Shown one piece after another: positions 2,511 to 27,090 of a DNA stretch of 32,000 nucleotides. Within the stretch, counting starts at the first letter, position 1, and every line of letters starts with the position of its first letter. Below the pieces are notes generated by a model. That model was not told the origin of the DNA. It worked only from the letters and a program-made list of their open reading frames with translations, and did not search any database. The DNA comes from Nostoc sp. PCC 7120 = FACHB-418 (GTDB lineage: Bacteria > Cyanobacteriota > Cyanobacteriia > Cyanobacteriales > Nostocaceae). A program made the position numbers and the translations under genes. Where the stretch lies: assembly GCF_000009705.1 (NCBI RefSeq), contig NC_003272.1, positions 3,540,001-3,572,000 on the forward strand, in the 5' to 3' direction.

Positions 2511-2921
2511 ATGAGCTACCACATAAATTCTTCCCAAAATCGGTTTCACAAAATAATTACGACTGAACAATTGAATCAAGTCATCGAAGCTATTACTGAT
2601 GGAAGATATTCTTGGGCTTGTGTTTTAATTTTACGTTTTGTTGGGTACAATCCTCTTCACTTTATTCCCCAACGGACTTATAGCCGTCTTATGAAGGACA
2701 ATAGACAAGTTGCCAATATACCTGGTTCATTAAATAATGGAAAATCCATAAGTGCCAATTCCCCCATAACTAACTCTAGCGTAGTTAATAAAGCTTCTAC
2801 TCAGGATTTAAACCAGTCGAATAATTCTGATTACTTAACCACTCCTGAACCAGATAAGAGGGGAAATATTCCAGGGTATTTAGAAACAAAAATGGCAGTA
2901 ATGTATAGCCGGAATCAATAG
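2511..2921 (+). CDS. HetP-family protein (heterocyst commitment regulator paralog)
   Basis: 136 aa. The N-terminal core ...EQLNQVIEAITDGRYSWACVLILRFVGYNPLHFIPQRTYSRLMKDN... matches the conserved HetP domain as I recall it. The C-terminal half is low-complexity and Ser/Asn-rich. A 1.08-kb non-coding leader precedes it. Confidence 0.8.
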   Translation: MSYHINSSQNRFHKIITTEQLNQVIEAITDGRYSWACVLILRFVGYNPLHFIPQRTYSRLMKDNRQVANIPGSLNNGKSISANSPITNSSVVNKASTQDLNQSNNSDYLTTPEPDKRGNIPGYLETKMAVMYSRNQ

Positions 2922-5756: not shown

Positions 5757-6326
5757 TCAACTAAAATTCAAACAACTAAAAATATCTTCTACAGTTAATT
5801 GCCAATTCGCCAATACACTCATAACAGGTAAAATATCTTTCCCTGCTTTGATTTCTGGTAATATATCAGGTTGAAAAACCACGATAGATTCATCATTAGG
5901 GTCGAGAAACCAACCTAGCTTTGCACCATTTTGCATAGAAAACATTATTTTACGGATAACCCGATTAGGGGATTGTTCTGGAGAAAGAATTTCAATAATC
6001 CAATCGAGGGAAATTTCAAATTGATTGGCAATTCTGCCATTAGGACGTAAAGGAATACGTGACCATTCAAAGACAGCAATATCTGGAACTATAGAATTTC
6101 CCGAAAACGTGCAGCGTAACTCAGGAAATGCGTAAGCTAATTTTTGTGGTTTAGCAATCTCATTAATAGCTGTCACCAAACTACTTTGTAAGGTGCTATG
6201 TTCTCCTTGAGGCGTCAGTTTTTGGTTGATTTTACCGTCAATATATTCACTGGCGGGTTTAGTTTCTGGTAATTTCAGAAACTCCTCTAGTGTCTTGTTG
6301 GCGAATACTGGAGTTGATAACGACAT
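5757..6326 (-). CDS. Uma2 family (DUF820) restriction-endonuclease-fold protein
   Basis: About 189 aa from ATG 6326 (the track start at 6332 is TTG). N-terminal ...LEEFLKLPETKPASEYIDG... and a core ...PDIAVF...IIEILSPEQS... are typical of the multi-copy cyanobacterial Uma2 family. Confidence 0.8.
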   Translation of the reverse strand: MSLSTPVFANKTLEEFLKLPETKPASEYIDGKINQKLTPQGEHSTLQSSLVTAINEIAKPQKLAYAFPELRCTFSGNSIVPDIAVFEWSRIPLRPNGRIANQFEISLDWIIEILSPEQSPNRVIRKIMFSMQNGAKLGWFLDPNDESIVVFQPDILPEIKAGKDILPVMSVLANWQLTVEDIFSCLNFS

Positions 6327-6462
6327 CAGCAATTACTCCTAAAACAATCCCAGCAAAGAAATATTGACTATTATTCAAATTATGCAATGTTAGATTACAG
6401 AAAAGGGGAAATTCAAAGTTGTGAATTTCCCCCGCTTGTTCTCTACATTACAACTATTAGTC

Positions 6463-7635
6463 TTAATATTCAGGAACGGATGGATCTACTTCCCGACTCC
6501 AAGCGGTGATTCCGCCTTTAACGTTTGTCCCCACAATCCCCGATTCTTTGAGGATGGCTAGGGCTTTTGCCGATCGCCCACCTAATTTACAATGAGCAAT
6601 TAAGCGGTGTCCGTTGAGGGCTTCTTTGACTTTGGCTACACCATTACCATTTTCAATGTCTGGTAAAGGTATTAATACAGAACCAGGAATTTTGGCGATT
6701 TCGTACTCGTTGGGGTTACGCACATCTAGCAGGACAAAATCTTTCGCCCCACTATCCAGCAATTCCTTGAGTTCGGTAACAGTCATTTCTTGAATTTCTT
6801 GCATTTTTTGCGCCTCGGCTGCTTTGGCTTGAGGAATACCACAGAATTGTTCGTAATCTATCAGTTTTTCAATTACTGGTCGTATGGGGTTGGGACGCAG
6901 TTTCAACTCACGGAATTTCATATCTAAGGCGTTGTACAGCAACAATCTACCACTGAGAGTATTACCATTGCCCAAAACAATTTTCACTGTTTCCGTGGCT
7001 TGAATTACACCGATAATTCCTGGCAAAATCCCTAATACTCCACCTTCTGCACAGGAGGGAACTAGTCCTGGTGGTGGTGGTTCTGGGTATAAGTCGCGGT
7101 AGTTCGGCCCGCCTTCGTAGTTAAAGACTGTGGCTTGTCCTTCAAAGCGGAAAATTGAACCGTAGACGTTGGGTTTATCTAACAATACGCAAGCGTCGTT
7201 GACTAGATATCTGGTAGGGAAGTTATCTGTACCATCCACCACGATATCGTAAGGTTTGATGATATCTAGGGCATTTTCGGAACTGAGACGAGTTTCGTAG
7301 AGGTCAACCTGACAATAGGGGTTAATCTCATGTATGCGGTTCTTTGCAGATTCAATTTTGGGTTTACCTACCCATGATGTTCCGTGGATGACTTGGCGTT
7401 GCAGGTTGGAAGTATCAACGACATCGAAATCGACTATACCGATGCGTCCAATACCGGCGGCGGCTAAATATAACAGTAGTGGTGAACCTAGTCCACCTGT
7501 ACCGATACAAAGTACACTGGCAGCTTTGAGCCGTTTTTGCCCTTCCACTCCCACTTCTGGCAAAATCAGGTGGCGGGAGTAGCGTTCGTAGTCGTCTTTA
7601 GTTAACTGGATATCTTCCAGGTTGGGATTAAGCAT
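6463..7635 (-). CDS. moeB: MoeB/ThiF-type (E1-like) adenylyltransferase with a C-terminal rhodanese domain (MoeZ-type)
   Basis: 390 aa. Nucleotide loop IGTGGLGSP, a RYSRHL start and a ThiF-family core. The C-terminal rhodanese has the active-site loop HCKLGGRS. Confidence 0.9.
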   Translation of the reverse strand: MLNPNLEDIQLTKDDYERYSRHLILPEVGVEGQKRLKAASVLCIGTGGLGSPLLLYLAAAGIGRIGIVDFDVVDTSNLQRQVIHGTSWVGKPKIESAKNRIHEINPYCQVDLYETRLSSENALDIIKPYDIVVDGTDNFPTRYLVNDACVLLDKPNVYGSIFRFEGQATVFNYEGGPNYRDLYPEPPPPGLVPSCAEGGVLGILPGIIGVIQATETVKIVLGNGNTLSGRLLLYNALDMKFRELKLRPNPIRPVIEKLIDYEQFCGIPQAKAAEAQKMQEIQEMTVTELKELLDSGAKDFVLLDVRNPNEYEIAKIPGSVLIPLPDIENGNGVAKVKEALNGHRLIAHCKLGGRSAKALAILKESGIVGTNVKGGITAWSREVDPSVPEY

Positions 7636-7706
7636 AGGAGTTTGAATGCGGAAGCGCGGACTACTGATTGTATCGAAAAATGATGTCGGTCTTTAGTCTT
7701 AAGTAT

Positions 7707-8195
7707 TTAAGTTATGTTATCAATTATTTCTGATTGAAACTGATGATTGTCATCAAGACTCCAACTAAGGATGTCACTGGCTATACCTTTTTGGACGGAA
7801 ACTATTATATACGAGTATCCAGCCCAAGCATAGAGGCGATCGCATTCTGAAGGTATGGCAGGATGATCAGGGTGAGAATGATAGATACCAATGATATTGA
7901 GTGACTTATCCCGTGCTTCTCTTTGTACCTGTAACATAATTTGAGGAGCGATCGCATATCTTCTTTTTAAACTGGAAGTTGGGGAAGTGATATTTGTCTT
8001 ATTTATTTCTTGGGTAAAGTTATCTGCTTCTGTCTCCCAAGCGTTAGCGGTAGGTATGACTTCCACAACAGTTTTCACCCCATTGGCTATATATCCCATC
8101 ATCAACCCACAACACTCTTGAGGATAGACGCTTTCAGCATGGCTGAGGATGGTTTGCTGATGTTCTGGTAAGAGTTTGATAGTTGGTTGATTCAT
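7707..8195 (-). CDS. JAMM/MPN+ (Mov34) zinc metalloprotease, Mec/QbsD-like
   Basis: 162 aa from ATG 8195. Complete JAMM motif HSHPDHPAIPSECD (H-x-H-x7-S-x2-D) plus the upstream Glu (YPQECCG). The start lies 4 nt after the ATPase stop. The longer track ORF (to 8240) would overlap the ATPase. Confidence 0.85.
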   Translation of the reverse strand: MNQPTIKLLPEHQQTILSHAESVYPQECCGLMMGYIANGVKTVVEVIPTANAWETEADNFTQEINKTNITSPTSSLKRRYAIAPQIMLQVQREARDKSLNIIGIYHSHPDHPAIPSECDRLYAWAGYSYIIVSVQKGIASDILSWSLDDNHQFQSEIIDNIT

Positions 8196-8199
8196 CTTT

Positions 8200-10407
8200 C
8201 TACCTTGGCGGGTCTTTGTGCATGAGGGGACGCAGACCATTTAACCCGGCTGCAATGGCTGAACCATTATGAACTACAGTTGCCGCTAGGGGATGTATTC
8301 CTACTGTGGTCGCTAGTCCTAAAGCGGCTAGGTTGGGAACTACGGCTAAACTGATATTTTGTTTAATGACTGCTTGGGTTTGACGGGCGATCGCTATTGC
8401 TTCGAGAAAACTAGTTAAGTTATCATCCATCAGGACAACATCGGCTGTTTCCCTAGCTACTTCGGAACCACTACCAAAGGAAATGGCGACATCGGCATAA
8501 GCTAAGGCGATGGAATCATTTAAACCATCGCCGGTAAAGGCGACAGTTTTACCTGAATCATGGAATTTCTGGATTATTTCGGCTTTTTGTGCGGGGAATG
8601 CTTCTGCATGGACTTGGAATAGGGGAAGATGGAGTTCCGCCGCAACAGCCATAGCCCTTTGCTGATTATCCCCTGTCAGTAGATGTATTTCCATGCCGTA
8701 TTCGGTTTGTAGTTTCTCAATTACGGCTGGGCTTTCTGGGCGCAGGGGGTCTGTGTAATAGATTACGCCTTGAAATTCCTGATTTACTGCCACATACAGT
8801 AAAGAATCATGGGCGGAGATGCGACAATTGAGGTGCTTGGGACAATCTGCATGGTTGCAACTATGTGGTTCATAAAGACAATCGAGGGGAATGCCACACT
8901 GACGCAAAAAGCGATCGCTCCCTACTATAACTTGTTCACCGTCAATTTCGGCTCGTACACCTAAGCCAATTTCATACTCAAATTCTTGCCTGGGCAGAAT
9001 TTCTATACCTTGTTTCTCGGCATAACGTACCACGGCTTCGGCTACTGGGTGGGTTAGGCGTTGTTCGGCGGCGGTGGCTAGGGCTATAAGTCTGTGGGTG
9101 GTGATTCTGTCGGCGATGATTTCCACCTCCACAACTTCGATATCACCTTTGGTTAATGTGCCTGTTTTATCGAAAACTAATGTATCTACCTGTGCCAATT
9201 TTTCTAAGGCGCGACCACTACGGATGAGAACACCGTGTCTTGTGGCGTGGTGTAAGGCGGCGAGGAAAGTTGTAGGTAGGGAAACGCGGATACCTGTGAC
9301 AAAATCAAGGGTGAGGATAGATGCAGCCCTGGCAGGGTTGCGGGTGGCTGCAAATACCAGTCCGGCAAAAATTAGAGATGGTAATATGGCTTGGTCGGCA
9401 ATGTCCGCCGCGTAGTTACCCATGCGTGTATCGTGAACGGGTGCTTGTTGGACTAACTCGATACTTGCACCAGCACGGGTAGCTGTTCCTACTCGTTCGG
9501 CTTGGATGTAAATTTCTCCTTCCCTGAGTAAGGTGGACGCATAAACCGCTTCTCCCACCTGACGCAAAACTGGCATGGATTCACCAGTGAGTTTTTGTTG
9601 GTCAATTAAAGCTTTACCCCTTAATATTTGCCCATCTACGGGGATTTGTTCGCCGGGATAGACTATGACTGTATCTTGTGGTTGTACTTGTGTAGCGAGG
9701 AGGCGTTTTTTCTGCCCATCTGGTTGTGCAACCCAAGCGTAATGCCCCAAAGAAGCCAGTAAATCGGCAGCGTGATTTTCCGTAACTCTGGCGGTGCGAT
9801 CGCGTATTATATCGCCAATTTCATGCAGTGTCATCACCAAAGCTGGTGTTAACAGGTTTCCTTGGGCAGAAGTTAAGGCGATCGCGATAAAATCTAGACA
9901 ATCTATATTTAATTTTCGTTTTTGGGTAATGCTAGTATAAGCACGTTTCGCTACCGGTAAAGCTGCAAGTCCTACCGTCGCTGCAATTATTGCCCTGGGA
10001 ATGGGGAACCCCAAACCCAATACAGCTAACACGGTTGCCAAAACTGGCAATTTTACACCAGCATTATCTGATTTTGTTACTTGTTGACGGTTGACTGTTG
10101 ACGGTTGCCTAAATTTAGCCTGATGAAGTAAACCTACCAGATAAGCTTCTATGAGCCTATTGCTAGCAGATTGCTCATATCTAATAGCAACAGAAGCTGC
10201 CCAGGGATTAACCCGTACTTCCAATATGTGACTGTCAGATTCTAGTAATTCTTGCAGGCGTTGAGCATAATAGAGGTCATGGGCTACCAGGGGAACGCGA
10301 AATCTGATTCTGCCTGGAATTGTATGCACTACACTGTAGGCAACTCCAGCGATGATACTTGATTTCTGAGCCACTTGCTTACTAGTTTCCGGCTTGGTGG
10401 CAGTCAT
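8200..10407 (-). CDS. P1B-like (heavy-metal type) P-type ATPase with non-canonical metal-site motifs
   Basis: 735 aa. Motifs TGES (LTGESMPV), DKTGTLT, LTGDN and GDGLNDS are all present, with an 8-TM P1B-like layout. The N-terminal HMA-like fold lacks CxxC (TIPGRIRFRVP). The TM position of CPC/SPC/CPH reads LDFVTG...SLPTT by manual alignment. A Cys/His-rich insert HSCNHADCPKHLNC sits in the nucleotide-binding domain. Confidence 0.85.
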   Translation of the reverse strand: MTATKPETSKQVAQKSSIIAGVAYSVVHTIPGRIRFRVPLVAHDLYYAQRLQELLESDSHILEVRVNPWAASVAIRYEQSASNRLIEAYLVGLLHQAKFRQPSTVNRQQVTKSDNAGVKLPVLATVLAVLGLGFPIPRAIIAATVGLAALPVAKRAYTSITQKRKLNIDCLDFIAIALTSAQGNLLTPALVMTLHEIGDIIRDRTARVTENHAADLLASLGHYAWVAQPDGQKKRLLATQVQPQDTVIVYPGEQIPVDGQILRGKALIDQQKLTGESMPVLRQVGEAVYASTLLREGEIYIQAERVGTATRAGASIELVQQAPVHDTRMGNYAADIADQAILPSLIFAGLVFAATRNPARAASILTLDFVTGIRVSLPTTFLAALHHATRHGVLIRSGRALEKLAQVDTLVFDKTGTLTKGDIEVVEVEIIADRITTHRLIALATAAEQRLTHPVAEAVVRYAEKQGIEILPRQEFEYEIGLGVRAEIDGEQVIVGSDRFLRQCGIPLDCLYEPHSCNHADCPKHLNCRISAHDSLLYVAVNQEFQGVIYYTDPLRPESPAVIEKLQTEYGMEIHLLTGDNQQRAMAVAAELHLPLFQVHAEAFPAQKAEIIQKFHDSGKTVAFTGDGLNDSIALAYADVAISFGSGSEVARETADVVLMDDNLTSFLEAIAIARQTQAVIKQNISLAVVPNLAALGLATTVGIHPLAATVVHNGSAIAAGLNGLRPLMHKDPPR
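10083..10110. repeat. Heptamer tandem repeat (GTTGACG/GTTGACT) inside the ATPase coding sequence
   Basis: gttgacg gttgact gttgacg gttgcct encodes the linker ...RQPSTVNRQQV... A related TTGACGGTTGACAG occurs in the intergenic region at about 25571-25584. Confidence 0.7.
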
Positions 10408-10756: not shown

Positions 10757-11374
10757 TTATTGTTCATAAGGTAGTGAGGAGTGATGCGTAATAATACGCA
10801 GCTTACCATGATCATCCTTCAAGAACTGCCAAGTCTTGTCTACCGTGGTGGCCTTACCTTGTTTGTCGGTGATGATTACGTTACCCATCGTAGTAGCTGT
10901 GTTACCAGTGATGAAAATCGCTGCATTCTTAATCTCTACTTTGCGCCAGCTACTCAAAGCAAAACCCTTGTCCTCAGGAAAAGCTTTATCGTCCCCCACA
11001 AAGTATGCCAAAGCCCCTGCACGGGTGGTGCGGAAGGTACGGGGAGATATGGCGAGTGTAGGCTTGAAAAGAACGGGGCCGAATTGATAACCGTAGGCAT
11101 CGTCAATCACCTTTTCAGCTAAAGCTTTAGCTGATGCTTTACCTTTCGCATCATAGGTTGTGGAAATAGCCACCAAAGCTTCCCCCCAAGCCTTTTGAGC
11201 AGCCAACACTTCGCTTTCAGTAATCGCCCTATTGACGATTGGCGTTTTCAGACTGGAAGTAGCCGTGATTTTGTCACCGGAGTCGGCAACGGATGTCTGG
11301 GCGACAATTGCAATACCTGATATAAGTGCGGTGGCTGCAAATAATACTAGAATCCTCGGTTTGAAGAGATTCAT
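10757..11374 (-). CDS. Iota-class carbonic anhydrase (COG4337; NTF2/CaMKII-AD-like fold), exported
   Basis: 205 aa. Sec-type signal peptide MNLFKPRILVLFAATALISGIAIVAQTSVA|DS. SnoaL/CaMKII-AD-like start of the mature domain (ITESEVLAAQKAWGEAL). C-terminal T-H-H-S-S at residues 196-200 is the HHSS signature of iota-CAs. The length and the His197/Ser199 positions match my memory of Anabaena All2909. Confidence 0.75.
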   Translation of the reverse strand: MNLFKPRILVLFAATALISGIAIVAQTSVADSGDKITATSSLKTPIVNRAITESEVLAAQKAWGEALVAISTTYDAKGKASAKALAEKVIDDAYGYQFGPVLFKPTLAISPRTFRTTRAGALAYFVGDDKAFPEDKGFALSSWRKVEIKNAAIFITGNTATTMGNVIITDKQGKATTVDKTWQFLKDDHGKLRIITHHSSLPYEQ

Positions 11375-11519: not shown

Positions 11520-12251
11520 TTAAGAAATTACTGAGACTGTTCCGGTATCAATATCGTAAGCAGCACCAATGATTTGGACAGTACCTTTATTAACTAACTG
11601 TGCCAAAATGGTTGATTTTTGTTGCAGCTTTTCAGCTTGGTACTGGATGTTAGCAATAACAGCTGCTTTATTAACATCCTTGGACTTTGACGGTAATTTT
11701 GACAAGGCTGGTCTAATACTCTCCGCCAAATAGCCGATTCTGCCAGGAAGGGGTTCATCTTTCACACTGGCTGCCACAGCACCGCATTTTGTATGCCCTA
11801 AAACGACAATCAACCGTGTATCGAGTACAGATGTAGCATATTCCAAACTAGCGATCGCCATATCACTGGCAATATTACCAGCTACTCGCACCACGAATAA
11901 ATCCCCCAGCCCTTGGTCAAAAACAATTTCCGCCGGGACTCTCGAATCTGCACAACCCAAAATAGCCGCAAAAGGATACTGTGCTTTGGCAATTGATTGC
12001 AGTTTTTGCCGTGATTGGTTAGGATACTTTGGTTTTCTTTTGACAAATCTTTGATTACCATCCAGTAAAAGCTTTAAAGCTTTTTGTGGATTTACTGGAT
12101 TAAGGTTAATTGATTTGACATCAGCAATAGCAGGTTCTTCTTTACCTACAGTCAAACTACCAGCACAAGCATTAGCAGCAACAACCAAGCTTCCCGCGCC
12201 GGCTAACCCTAAGAAATTACGACGGCCAATAAATCCATTGATTCGACTCAT
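11520..12251 (-). CDS. Beta-class carbonic anhydrase with a twin-arginine (Tat) signal peptide
   Basis: 243 aa from ATG 12251 (the track start at 12266 is TTG). Tat motif GRRNFLGLAGAG. Beta-CA zinc-ligand motifs CADSRVP and LGHTKCGAV. Confidence 0.9.
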   Translation of the reverse strand: MSRINGFIGRRNFLGLAGAGSLVVAANACAGSLTVGKEEPAIADVKSINLNPVNPQKALKLLLDGNQRFVKRKPKYPNQSRQKLQSIAKAQYPFAAILGCADSRVPAEIVFDQGLGDLFVVRVAGNIASDMAIASLEYATSVLDTRLIVVLGHTKCGAVAASVKDEPLPGRIGYLAESIRPALSKLPSKSKDVNKAAVIANIQYQAEKLQQKSTILAQLVNKGTVQIIGAAYDIDTGTVSVIS

Positions 12252-12495
12252 TTCTTTACCTAACAACAGTTTGACTGTTATCAGAAAGATACCAAACTTA
12301 ACAAAGTTTCAAGAGTACTTTTGCACACGCTTTAAGAGTTATTTAATTATTAGTTAGTAGTCAAACCCTAAAACACTGGCTTTAGGGTATAGGGGTGTAG
12401 GGGTGGATGCAACCATTATTCCGTTGCTGGTTTTATAGTCATTACTCATTAACCTTATGAAAAACCTACACTTGCCAGATTGTATACTCCCTAGT

Positions 12496-20141: not shown

Positions 20142-20510
20142 TTACTCTTCATCTAAGGGTAAACCGGCTTTCACTCTTCCCTTGGCAAAATAGCGCCCAA
20201 ACTGAAGCTCATAAACTTCATCTTCGTCTTGTGTTTCTACTTCCAAATCAGAACGGGCATAACTGACGCATAACAAAGCATAACCTTGACGACGCAACTC
20301 TAGGGATAATCCCACTGCCTCTGGTTGATAAATGTCACCAGATACGACCCTGACAGCACAAGTGGTGCAAGCCCCATTGCGACAAGAAAATGGCAATTCC
20401 ACCCCTTGTTGTTCGGCCGTGTGTAAGATATATCGGTCTTCTGGTACTTTTAGGGTATACTGTTTGCCAGTGGCGCGATCGCGTACTTTAACTGTGTGTG
20501 TCTCGGACAT
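20142..20510 (-). CDS. Plant-type [2Fe-2S] ferredoxin with a C-terminal extension (FdC2-like)
   Basis: 122 aa. Cluster motif SCRNGACTTCA (C-x4-C-x2-C) plus the distal LLCVSY Cys. About 25 extra C-terminal residues compared with a typical ~98-aa PetF. Confidence 0.85.
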   Translation of the reverse strand: MSETHTVKVRDRATGKQYTLKVPEDRYILHTAEQQGVELPFSCRNGACTTCAVRVVSGDIYQPEAVGLSLELRRQGYALLCVSYARSDLEVETQDEDEVYELQFGRYFAKGRVKAGLPLDEE

Positions 20511-20856: not shown

Positions 20857-21351
20857 ATCACCCAAACAATCTCGTATGGATTACTCGCTTCACTTAACAA
20901 TGCAGCCATCTATATGGATTCTCAAACAGGTAATAACAGCATTTTGCATACAAAAATAGAGACTTTACAACAAACAATAGATACAAATGTTTATGGAGTT
21001 TTGCGAGTAACTCAGGCATTAATAACCTTAATGCAGGAACAAAACTATGGTCGAATTGTCAATGTTTCTTCCGGCGCTGGACAGTTAACTGATATGGGTT
21101 CGGGTATACCCACATATCGCATTTCCAAAACAGCCTTAAATGCACTGATGCGAATTTTTGCCAGTGAATTAAAAGGGACGAATATTTTAGTTAATTCTGT
21201 GTGTCCTGGTTGGGTTAAAACTGATATGGGTGGGAAAGATGCACCACGAACCCCTGAAGAGGGAGTTGATACAATCGTCTGGCTAGCAACTCTTCCTGAT
21301 GGTGGTGCTTCTGGTGGTTTCTTCCGCGATCGCCAGCCAATAGATTGGTAA
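20857..21351 (+). pseudogene. N-terminally truncated classical SDR (carbonyl-reductase-like), C-terminal two-thirds only
   Basis: The frame is open from 20857, with the first ATG at 20914. It contains LNNAAIY (NNAG-like), the catalytic YRISKTALN (YxxxK) and a PGWVKTDM tail. The TGxxxGxG Rossmann N-terminus (~85 aa) is absent, and only about 150 bp separate the frame from the tRNA. Confidence 0.65.
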
Positions 21352-22969: not shown

Positions 22970-23263
22970 TCAAGATACTAAGATACGAGGACAAATAGTT
23001 TCTTGTATTTCTTTCCCTGATGTTTGTTCAGCTAACCTTAGCTCATAATTCTTTTGAAGATTTAACCAGAATTCTCCACCAGTTCCAAAATATTGTCCTA
23101 ATCGCAAAGCTGTATCGGCTGTTATCCCTCGTCTGCCATTAATGATTTCAGTAATTCTGTTTTTGGGAACATGGAGAACACGCGCTAAATCACTCGCAGT
23201 CATAGCGAGTTCAGTAATTTCGTCAGCAAGAATTTCTCCGGGGTGGATTGGTGGGCGTGCCAT
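22970..23263 (-). CDS. higA: HigA-family antitoxin (XRE-type HTH)
   Basis: 97 aa. PIHPGEILADE...LARVLHVPKNRITEIINGRRGITADTALRL is the canonical HigA/VapI pattern. AAGGAGAG SD. Starts 11 nt after the toxin stop. Confidence 0.9.
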   Translation of the reverse strand: MARPPIHPGEILADEITELAMTASDLARVLHVPKNRITEIINGRRGITADTALRLGQYFGTGGEFWLNLQKNYELRLAEQTSGKEIQETICPRILVS

Positions 23264-23274
23264 TTATCTCTCCT

Positions 23275-23574
23275 TCAGTGATAATCTGTAATCTCTATGT
23301 TGAAGGGCTTAAGAAAATCATCAGGCCAGTTAAAACAAATTCTCCACTGCTCATTAATTCGGATACTGTACTGACCTTTTCTATCGCCTCCTAATGACTC
23401 AAAACGATTACTTGGTAGTTGCATTAGCACTTCCTTATTAGGGGCTGCATCTATAATATCTAATCGTTTTTGTGCTTGTCTCTCAAAAGATTGAAACTCT
23501 TTAACCCTTTCTCCTAAAGCAAATTTCTCCGTCCTTTTATCTTTATATTTAGGGTATTCATCTGATGGAGACAT
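23275..23574 (-). CDS. higB: HigB-family (RelE/ParE superfamily) toxin, plasmid-maintenance-killer type
   Basis: 99 aa. ...RLDIIDAAPNKEVLMQLPSNRFESLGGDRKGQYSIRINEQWRICFNW... The toxin-first gene order is typical of higBA. Confidence 0.85.
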   Translation of the reverse strand: MSPSDEYPKYKDKRTEKFALGERVKEFQSFERQAQKRLDIIDAAPNKEVLMQLPSNRFESLGGDRKGQYSIRINEQWRICFNWPDDFLKPFNIEITDYH

Positions 23575-26295: not shown

Positions 26296-27090
26296 TTAAA
26301 TGGCTTCGATAACTAGGCGATCGTTGAGAGGTTGCACTGGACGTGCGTTTTGGGGAAACATTTGACTAAACTTAGCTATCTGTGCAGGAGAGGCTTCGAT
26401 AGGTGTCGCCATTACGCACCAGAGAACATTTTCTGAACAGGGTGGGGTTGTCAGAGAGCCAGAATAAGTAAAAAATCTGTGTTGTGCTGGGAGAAATTGG
26501 GAAGCGTCTATATTTATATCCTCTATTCTTTTGTCTGTTCCTTGGTTTTGAGGTGTGGCATCCCAGATAATTTGCAGCGTCGGGTTAAATGCTCCTGCTT
26601 GCAAGAAAATACCCATAACGGCTAAGTCGCCAGATTTACTCCGGTGAACTAAATGGAGTTCCATATCATATAATTTCCCATCAACCCGATGTTCGCTGAA
26701 GTGATGAAAGTGAAACTGAAGCAGCTCAAATTTTTGGTGAGCATACTTGAGATAACTGCCTGGTTGATAGTTGACTTGGACTGTTTTACCGTTGTTGATT
26801 AGGTGTAATGCCGTTGGCTGATAATTGGTAACTAACAAATCTTGACTGCTGCTGTGGACATCTTTCACATCTGCAATCTGCAAATCAATCGGCGTTTGTT
26901 TTCTGCCTATTTGGCAAAGGGCAAAGTCAGGGGAAAGCTCACCCCAATGCTCTGGGCCTACTTTGCCGATATATCCCCAGTTTACCGTTTTTGCCCTAGC
27001 TGGAGATGTGACACAACTAGAAAATGAGGTTCCCAAGACACTCATACCCAATAATTTCAGTAGTTGCCTTCGATATAAAGTACTACTCAT
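26296..27090 (-). CDS. ecaA: Alpha-class carbonic anhydrase, exported
   Basis: 264 aa. RR-containing signal (YRRQLLKLLGMSVLG...ARA|K). Alpha-CA hallmarks NWGY, QFHFHHFSEH (two Zn His), ELHLVH (third His) and GSLTTPPCSE. Confidence 0.9.
   Translation of the reverse strand: MSSTLYRRQLLKLLGMSVLGTSFSSCVTSPARAKTVNWGYIGKVGPEHWGELSPDFALCQIGRKQTPIDLQIADVKDVHSSSQDLLVTNYQPTALHLINNGKTVQVNYQPGSYLKYAHQKFELLQFHFHHFSEHRVDGKLYDMELHLVHRSKSGDLAVMGIFLQAGAFNPTLQIIWDATPQNQGTDKRIEDINIDASQFLPAQHRFFTYSGSLTTPPCSENVLWCVMATPIEASPAQIAKFSQMFPQNARPVQPLNDRLVIEAI

Follow-up and report, generated by a model that had tools for sequence, protein, structure and literature searches.

The three consecutive genes of Nostoc sp. 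PCC 7120 that encode a P1B-like P-type ATPase, a JAMM metalloprotease and a MoeZ-type E1-like enzyme are best explained, with a probability of about 0.85, as two units that are unrelated and adjoin by chance: a JAMM–MoeZ sulfur-carrier module, the carriers of which would be encoded elsewhere, and an unrelated neighbouring pump. The JAMM–MoeZ pair is already known, having been catalogued for cyanobacteria since 2006 (Iyer, Burroughs and Aravind, Genome Biol 7:R60; PMC1779556). As judged from gene order, the ATPase is a recent and lineage-specific neighbour, shared by a few close relatives, and lies outside the conserved module. The tight junction that joins the two units is a historical accident and does not count as evidence that they share a function.

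Gene layout and protein families

The genes were analysed within a window of 32,000 nt (NC_003272.1, positions 3,540,001 to 3,572,000), and coordinates below refer to this window. The ATPase gene (735 aa) occupies 10407–8200(−), with its stop codon at 8202–8200. It is separated by 4 nt, 8196–8199(−), from the gene for the JAMM/MPN+ metalloprotease of the Prok-JAB type, 8195–7707(−) (162 aa); the junction reads ...CCAAGG TAG AAAG ATG AAT.... After a 71-nt spacer, 7636–7706(−), devoid of a predicted terminator-like site, follows the gene for the MoeZ-type E1-like adenylyltransferase/sulfurtransferase, 7635–6463(−) (390 aa), in which a ThiF domain is fused to a C-terminal rhodanese domain. A terminator-like hairpin at 6404–6433(−), with a 12-bp stem followed by a T-run, lies ~30 nt past the MoeZ stop codon and probably marks where the transcription unit ends. 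Thus, the coordinates agree with the initial sequence-only reading, which described three consecutive same-strand genes with gaps of 4 and 71 nt, and the gene identities that it proposed are borne out by domain and HMM matches. A longer JAMM ORF starting at ATG 8240 and overlapping the ATPase gene was considered and rejected; the start at 8195 is favoured because homologues begin with MNQPTIKL. Literature searches with the presumed locus tags all2906, all2907 and all2908 returned no match. The window also encodes an iota-carbonic anhydrase (all2909) that is 100% identical to PDB 7C5V.

Both proteins of the JAMM–MoeZ pair carry complete sets of family motifs. The protease matches Prok-JAB (E 7e-26) and has an intact active site, composed of E27 (ECCG) and H106-S-H-x7-S-x2-D, but scores below the cut-off of the desampylase equivalog (70.9 versus 130 bits). 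In the E1, ThiF (E 1e-80) and Rhodanese (E 5e-14) domains are both recognized, and the GTGGLG ATP loop (residue 45), C195 (CAEGG) and the rhodanese active loop C349-KLGGR are all present. Its score exceeds the cut-off of the NCBIfam equivalog PRK07411, named MoeB (826 versus 633 bits), and falls below those of the MoeZ equivalog PRK07878 (519.6 versus 647 bits) and the UbaA equivalog (324.6 versus 450 bits). The E1 is 91–99% identical among Nostocaceae; on the basis of this conservation and of the family names, it is suggested to have a housekeeping or core role.

The JAMM–MoeZ pair as a conserved unit

We surveyed 80 Nostocaceae species loci anchored on the JAMM gene. In 75 of them, MoeZ follows just downstream of JAMM in the same orientation. 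In some species the two genes are separated by insertions of 1.3–3.5 kb, which carry genes for unrelated enzymes as well as ORFs resembling transposases or integrases. The larger gaps of some Nostoc species were considered as a hiding place for a carrier gene and dismissed, as they are heterogeneous insertions. Clustering of all ORFs from these loci revealed neither a further widely conserved functional neighbour nor a small carrier ORF, and thi, moa and cys genes are not among the conserved neighbours of the pair in Nostocaceae. A beta-carbonic anhydrase gene is located directly upstream of JAMM in seven loci, which suggests that the ancestral gene order may have been beta-carbonic anhydrase, JAMM, MoeZ.

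Our own count covers Nostocaceae; conservation in other cyanobacterial orders is taken from PMC1779556. There, row 4b of Table 1 describes a carrier-less neighbourhood consisting of a standalone JAB/JAMM peptidase beside a ThiF/MoeB-like E1–rhodanese fusion, in most cyanobacteria with no adjacent ThiS/MoaD gene. The row lists Anabaena sp. PCC 7120 itself, together with A. variabilis, N. punctiforme, Gloeobacter, Prochlorococcus, Synechococcus and Thermosynechococcus. The window pair displays all of the features of this group, namely, the intact JAB motif, the E1–rhodanese fusion with its active-site cysteine and the conserved same-strand adjacency, and differs from it in nothing of substance: the upstream ATPase goes unmentioned there and is outside the conserved neighbourhood here. 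Therefore, the view that no system with such an architecture had been described does not hold for the pair, and the ATPase is not part of it.

A sulfur-carrier protein was sought within the window by comparing 74 intergenic ORFs, each 30 aa or longer, with Pfam at E ≤ 1; none matched the ThiS, MoaD, Urm1 or ubiquitin families, in agreement with the initial observation that the window lacks a small beta-grasp carrier ORF. The sole ORF with a beta-grasp fold, 20142–20510(−), is a 2Fe-2S ferredoxin (Fer2) and was rejected as a sulfur carrier. No AMP-ligase, CoA-transferase or other biosynthetic gene is present in the window either. The lack of a carrier gene, previously regarded as unusual, is not so, since row 4b of PMC1779556 lists the pair in carrier-less form.

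From family knowledge, the E1 would adenylate ThiS/MoaD-type sulfur carriers at their C-terminal glycine, and C349 of its rhodanese domain would provide persulfide sulfur, converting the adenylate into a thiocarboxylate. The JAMM protease would trim C-terminal extensions of the carriers or free them from adducts. The carriers and the sulfur-using enzymes would be encoded at other sites of the genome. The substrates of the pair are inferred.

In cysteine biosynthesis of Mycobacterium tuberculosis, a JAMM protease and an E1–rhodanese act on a sulfur-carrier protein. This Mec+/CysO/CysM system with MoeZ, operon type 4d of PMC1779556, resembles the window pair in combining a JAMM protein with an E1–rhodanese; however, genes for a CysO carrier, CysM or ClpS are lacking around the window pair, and the window E1 does not reach the MoeZ equivalog cut-off. 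An E1–rhodanese and a JAB protein likewise form the sulfur-transfer core of QbsC/QbsD/QbsE and PdtF/G/H, responsible for thioquinolobactin and PDTC siderophores in Pseudomonas (operon type 4a, PMC1779556). By contrast, the window contains no C-terminally extended carrier, AMP-ligase or CoA-transferase, and the link to metals that the pump might suggest is not conserved for the window pair. The archaeal SAMP system (UbaA/HvJAMM1) differs in that the window E1 and JAMM score below the UbaA and desampylase cut-offs, respectively. The original reading was right to treat JAMM and MoeZ-type E1 proteins as genuine partners in sulfur-carrier systems.

A more specific role for the pair is conceivable: instead of serving as a general Moco/thiamine E1, it might belong to a dedicated pathway with a carrier encoded elsewhere, for example CysO-like cysteine synthesis, TtuB-type tRNA thiolation with protein conjugation, or synthesis of a thio-metabolite. 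The treatment of rows 4a–4e in PMC1779556 as distinct from the classical thiamine/MoCo operons points in this direction, as does the absence of conserved thi, moa or cys neighbours; moreover, a JAMM partner is, from family knowledge, typical of Mec/CysO, QbsD/QbsE and SAMP/TtuB. We nevertheless regard such a dedicated pathway as unlikely: the E1 passes the MoeB model and fails both the PRK07878 and UbaA models, its identity among Nostocaceae speaks for a core function, and the JAMM protein is below the desampylase cut-off.

Relation of the pump to the pair

The sequence-only reading had described an ATPase–JAMM–MoeZ operon and had seen in its link to the pump a pointer to function. The neighbourhood survey contradicts this and gives the outcome that the reading itself had named as a refutation. 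The ATPase gene is upstream of JAMM in 4 of the 80 Nostocaceae species loci and missing from the other 76, and none of seven orthologue loci from other cyanobacteria (55–82% identity), all of them beyond the immediate clade, has JAMM/MoeZ genes near the ATPase. No JAMM/MoeZ gene was found within 6–8 kb of the ATPases of Nostoc CENA543 (82% identity), Fischerella (76%), Richelia sinica (72%), Calothrix PCC 7716 (65%), Okeania (58%) and Capilliphycus (55%), or of those on two metagenome contigs (59%). The linkage is thus limited to a few close relatives; the trio-bearing taxa are PCC 7120, T. variabilis, N. parmelioides, A. subtropica, Anabaena 4-3, A. minutissima and Nostoc PCC 7524. The ATPase of Trichormus variabilis is 96% identical to that of the window, and within the trio-bearing subclade the ATPases have diverged to ~80% identity. 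Since the trio has persisted over such divergence, keeping the genes adjacent may bring this subclade some selective benefit.

The 4-nt junction occurs in the PCC 7120 lineage only. The six other trio-bearing taxa have ATPase–JAMM spacers of ~100–490 nt: 217 nt in T. variabilis, 179, 490, 104 and 438 nt in four relatives, and a gap of 175 nt between the called genes in Nostoc PCC 7524. Alignments revealed a homologous spacer common to T. variabilis, N. parmelioides and A. subtropica that is wholly missing from the window. The deletion breakpoints fall between TAGAAA and GATGA... at one end and immediately before GATGAATCAACC at the other (alignments A1, A3). The missing segment, ~175–215 nt, corresponds to the whole intergenic spacer and lies between GATGA(A) direct repeats. 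From these alignments, the junction is a derived deletion scar particular to the PCC 7120 lineage, so that the arrangement is unremarkable. In the preferred explanation, a genome rearrangement within one small subclade of Anabaena/Nostoc brought the ATPase to its place between a gene for beta-carbonic anhydrase and JAMM; later, in the PCC 7120 lineage alone, the deletion between the repeats removed the spacer. The resulting junction probably leads to read-through co-transcription in PCC 7120.

Three other accounts of the adjacency can be weighed against two abutting units. If the ATPase, JAMM and MoeZ formed one module, the pump would handle a thio-metallophore or cofactor, or would itself undergo a ubiquitin-like modification. 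The common strand, the 4-nt junction, the lack of a terminator-like site between the genes and adjacency kept in ~7 related strains are in keeping with this idea; however, the ATPase is absent from nearly all JAMM-anchored loci, the pair is absent from every ATPase-anchored locus outside the clade, and the junction itself is a lineage-specific deletion. Furthermore, genes for a carrier, an AMP-ligase or other biosynthetic enzymes are lacking from the window, and the recurrent partners of the ATPase at other loci are feoAB and small HMA_2 proteins. For practical purposes, the neighbourhood survey already refutes the single module, which we consider the least probable of all the accounts. Only slightly better placed, and still very improbable, is transcriptional and translational control of JAMM and MoeZ by the pump gene through the deletion fusion, within the trio-bearing subclade and above all in PCC 7120; if true, a core sulfur-carrier E1 would be co-regulated with, or act on, an LTLDF-type P1B-like ATPase.

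The third account holds that adjacency has no effect on expression, with JAMM and MoeZ relying on a promoter of their own, now inside the 3′ part of the ATPase gene, and with separate transcription of the pump gene. Since insertions between JAMM and MoeZ are tolerated in some species, promoters appear to be flexible, and a weak promoter-like site, 8693–8665(−), is indeed located inside the ATPase gene. On the other hand, the whole spacer upstream of JAMM has been deleted, promoter-like matches were no commoner than in shuffled sequence, and no terminator-like site is predicted in the window between the three genes (terminator hits did not exceed the number expected from shuffled sequence). Separate transcription is therefore possible but doubtful. 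Two abutting units, one of them the conserved JAMM–MoeZ pair, remain the preferred explanation. More generally, a 4-nt junction that resembles translational coupling can turn out to be the scar of a recent deletion, devoid of functional meaning, and a gene-neighbourhood survey settles such a question quickly.

The CoBaHMA/LTLDF ATPase subfamily

The ATPase contains E1-E2_ATPase, Hydrolase and HMA_2 domains and matches the P1B subfamily model TIGR01525 at 555.8 bits (cut-off 346). Its best solved relatives are CopA, ZntA and sCoaT. It shares the overall architecture and catalytic motifs of the P1B-type ATPases CopA, ZntA and CoaT; TGES274, DKTGT413, THP452, TGDN578 and GDGLND626 are all present. 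It differs from them in TM4, where LTLDF365 replaces CPC/SPC (CPC aligns to D-F-V of LTLDF), in TM6, which reads HNGS713, and in its N-terminus, a CoBaHMA/HMA_2 domain (PF19991) with conserved basic residues (H28-x4-GRIRFR) and no CxxC. The early label of a ‘non-canonical’ ATPase was thus well chosen with respect to both TM4 and the N-terminal domain. Among the 120 homologues listed, LTLDF is kept in every one with a locatable DKTGT, the H..GRxRxR signature is found in 109, and CxxC in none. A Cys/His-rich insert in the nucleotide-binding domain was considered as a metal site and dropped, being present in 78 of the 120 homologues and variable in form.

The protein falls into a P1B-like subfamily that is well conserved in cyanobacteria, has a CoBaHMA N-terminus and carries LTLDF instead of CPC. 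Its genes often adjoin feoAB; small HMA_2 proteins are its other recurrent partners. The CoBaHMA domain family was first noticed through intracellular carbonate biomineralisation. The modest interest that remains in this locus lies with this subfamily, which carries a CoBaHMA domain and lacks the canonical metal-binding residues. A metagenome scan with the ATPase alignment was dominated by the generic DKTGTL pattern, and it recovered only two true family members, L094 and L095.

Gene content and the restricted ATPase linkage

The locus consists of three consecutive minus-strand ORFs: a 735-aa P1B-like ATPase (10407..8200; Pfam E1-E2_ATPase, HAD hydrolase and HMA_2), a JAMM protease (8195..7707; Prok-JAB) and a 390-aa E1-like protein with ThiF and Rhodanese domains (7635..6463), referred to here as MoeZ. 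The ATPase scores 556 bits against TIGR01525 (P1B), and the E1 scores 826 bits against PRK07411 'MoeB', for which the cut-off is 633 (NCBIfam). Active-site motifs are intact in the JAMM protease (E27, HSHx7Sx2D), in the E1 (GTGGLG loop, C195) and in the active loop of the rhodanese domain (C349-KLGGR). The gene identities proposed in the sequence-only reading hold, and the ORFs, their common strand and the two gaps, 4 nt between ATPase and JAMM (TAG AAAG ATG) and 71 nt between JAMM and E1, are as it described them. An alternative in-frame ATG at 8240, used by some public gene calls (e.g. the protein call P0121), would yield a 177-aa JAMM ORF with a 41-nt overlap with the ATPase 3' end (8196-8240, minus strand); it is disfavoured because homologues begin at MNQPTIKL, which supports the start at 8195. 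By their numbering, the three genes would correspond to all2908, all2907 and all2906.

A JAMM-anchored scan with one genome per species yielded 80 Nostocaceae loci with 10-kb flanks, to which the window proteins were then compared by tblastn. In 75 of these loci a same-strand MoeZ (91-99% identity) lies downstream of JAMM, usually 60-150 nt away. The ATPase is upstream of JAMM in only four, those of N. parmelioides, A. subtropica, Anabaena sp. 4-3 and A. minutissima, which carry the closest JAMM relatives. At seven further loci JAMM is directly preceded by a beta-carbonic anhydrase gene, suggesting that the ancestral order was beta-CA, JAMM, MoeZ, often with an MFS gene, and that the ATPase was placed there later. 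When all 5,650 ORFs of the 80 loci were clustered, no other functional neighbour proved to be widely conserved; small conserved ORFs were likewise absent, as were thi, moa and cys genes. In some loci the JAMM-MoeZ gap is widened to 1.3-3.5 kb by heterogeneous insertions, and a carrier gene is absent from these gaps as well.

The ATPase-anchored survey leads to the same picture. Orthologues are found across filamentous cyanobacteria (54-96% identity), and the three genes occur in order in T. variabilis (ATPase 96%) and Nostoc PCC 7524 (84%). No JAMM or MoeZ lies within 6-8 kb of the ATPase in Nostoc CENA543 (82%), Fischerella NIES-3754 (76%), Richelia sinica (72%), Calothrix PCC 7716 (65%), Okeania (58%), Capilliphycus (55%) or on two metagenome contigs (59%). 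In Trichormus sp. M33_DOE_039 (84%), no ATPase is present within 10 kb of JAMM (locus L017). Since the ATPase accompanies JAMM-MoeZ in few loci of both surveys, its linkage to the pair is confined to a small subclade. The sequence-only reading had proposed a pump-coupled ATPase-JAMM-MoeZ module and had itself named restricted linkage as the outcome that counts against it; this is what the neighbourhood comparison across cyanobacteria found.

Origin of the 4-nt junction

Every other trio-bearing genome has a long ATPase-JAMM spacer: 179 nt in N. parmelioides, 490 nt in A. subtropica, 104 nt in Anabaena sp. 4-3, 438 nt in A. minutissima and 217 nt in T. variabilis; in PCC 7524 the called genes lie 175 nt apart. 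The spacer is homologous in N. parmelioides, T. variabilis and A. subtropica. In the relatives it includes a GC-rich hairpin (CTCCCCTTCCCTTGTAGGGAAGGGG) and a tandem repeat of 21 nt, GTTTGGAACnnAAACATTCTT (loci L011, about 9690-9960; L013, about 9610-9880; L010, 9860-9890); in A. subtropica and A. minutissima this repeat has expanded beyond 12 copies. The shared spacer starts immediately past the ATPase stop with AAAGATGA... and finishes at the start of JAMM with ...GATGAATCAACC; the window passes directly from TAGAAA to GATGAATCAACC, and the whole spacer is missing (alignments A1 and A3). Because three relatives have this spacer in common, the PCC 7120 junction is derived: about 175-215 nt have been deleted between two short direct repeats, GATGA(A). 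The window scan placed a terminator-like hairpin after MoeZ (6433-6404, minus strand) and no such site within the trio, so that read-through co-transcription of the three genes is plausible in PCC 7120; if it occurs, it would have arisen as a side effect of the deletion. The supposed pump-coupled architecture is thus a lineage-restricted juxtaposition, sharpened by a deletion in the lineage of this strain.

The JAMM-MoeZ pair

The other part of that interpretation, the partnership of JAMM with MoeZ, stands. The neighbourhood of a JAB peptidase and an E1 fused to rhodanese was catalogued by Iyer, Burroughs and Aravind in 2006 (PMC1779556, Table 1, row 4b) in Anabaena PCC 7120, A. variabilis, N. 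punctiforme, Gloeobacter, Prochlorococcus, Synechococcus and Thermosynechococcus. Among these cyanobacteria an adjacent ThiS/MoaD-like protein is marked for Gloeobacter alone; the carrier-less pair has therefore been in the literature since 2006. The same table also has related operon types, with PDTC/quinolobactin clusters as 4a, cysteine-synthase types as 4c and the actinobacterial CysO/CysM/ClpS operon as 4d. That no beta-grasp carrier is visible in the window was also correctly noted from the sequence: among 74 ORFs of at least 30 aa outside the large genes, a Pfam scan (E<=1) gave no match to the ThiS, MoaD, Urm1 or ubiquitin families, the matches being to an RRM protein, a 2Fe-2S ferredoxin, a 4Fe-4S ferredoxin, a cNMP-binding protein and a HigB/HTH pair.

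From the families of row 4b and the related operon types, it can be proposed that the E1 would adenylate the C-terminal Gly of a beta-grasp carrier, that the rhodanese persulfide would turn the adenylate into a thiocarboxylate, and that JAMM would expose the GG terminus of the carrier or recycle it. The carriers may be encoded elsewhere and the role of the pair broadly housekeeping, a reading favoured because the E1 passes the NCBI MoeB equivalog and fails the MoeZ and UbaA equivalogs (NCBIfam) and because it is almost invariant across Nostocaceae. Service in a dedicated pathway is a reasonable rival to this housekeeping role.

The ATPase subfamily and other genes of the window

The ATPase was called non-canonical at the outset, and the comparison with its homologues bears this out. 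Whereas canonical P1B ATPases have CPC in TM4, the window ATPase has LTLDF, with the CPC of CopA aligning to D-F-V inside this motif. Among the 120 listed homologues, LTLDF occurs in all those with a DKTGT that could be located; the last TM helix (TM6) reads HNGS in 113 and HNGT in two more. An H..GRxRxR signature is found in 109 of the 120, and an N-terminal CxxC in none. For the N-terminal domain the Pfam match is HMA_2 (PF19991), a profile that a Microcystis preprint equates with CoBaHMA (Gaschignard et al. 2024), a family described as first defined in calcyanin. The ATPase belongs to a conserved cyanobacterial P1B-like subfamily (CoBaHMA N-terminus, TM4 LTLDF, TM6 HNGS). In the neighbourhood comparison (window 8200-10407, minus strand, and the related loci L005, L006, L008, L093 and L175), the ATPase has other recurrent neighbours beyond the PCC 7120 subclade: a divergent feoA-feoB pair adjoins it in PCC 7524, Fischerella and Richelia, feoB is about 7.6 kb away in Capilliphycus, and small HMA_2 proteins and DUF5132 proteins are encoded nearby in Okeania, Capilliphycus and Richelia. 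This subfamily is the sole part of the locus that may be mildly notable to specialists, and it does not involve JAMM or MoeZ.

Carbonic anhydrases of three classes, all on the minus strand, are encoded within 16 kb: beta-CA (11520-12266), iota-CA (10757-11374) and alpha-CA (26296-27090). The iota-CA, a metal-independent 205-aa neighbour of the ATPase, is 100% identical to PDB 7C5V (all2909, Anabaena sp. PCC 7120); T. variabilis has a second beta-CA at this position (locus L090). A Uma2-family putative endonuclease gene (5757-6332, minus strand) lies between MoeZ and the MFS transporter gene and is a local insertion, as among the 80 related loci it takes this position only in A. subtropica. The ORFs of a HigB-like toxin (23275-23574) and an HTH_3 antitoxin (22970-23263), together at 22970-23574 on the minus strand, look like a type II toxin-antitoxin pair. 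A 145-aa ORF (20914-21351, plus strand) covers no more of the short-chain dehydrogenase profile than positions 90-189 and looks like an SDR gene truncated at its N-terminus, or a remnant of one. About 3.5 kb from MoeZ, a 136-aa HetP-family gene (Pfam HetP; 2511-2921, plus strand) is presumably the hetP homologue alr2902.
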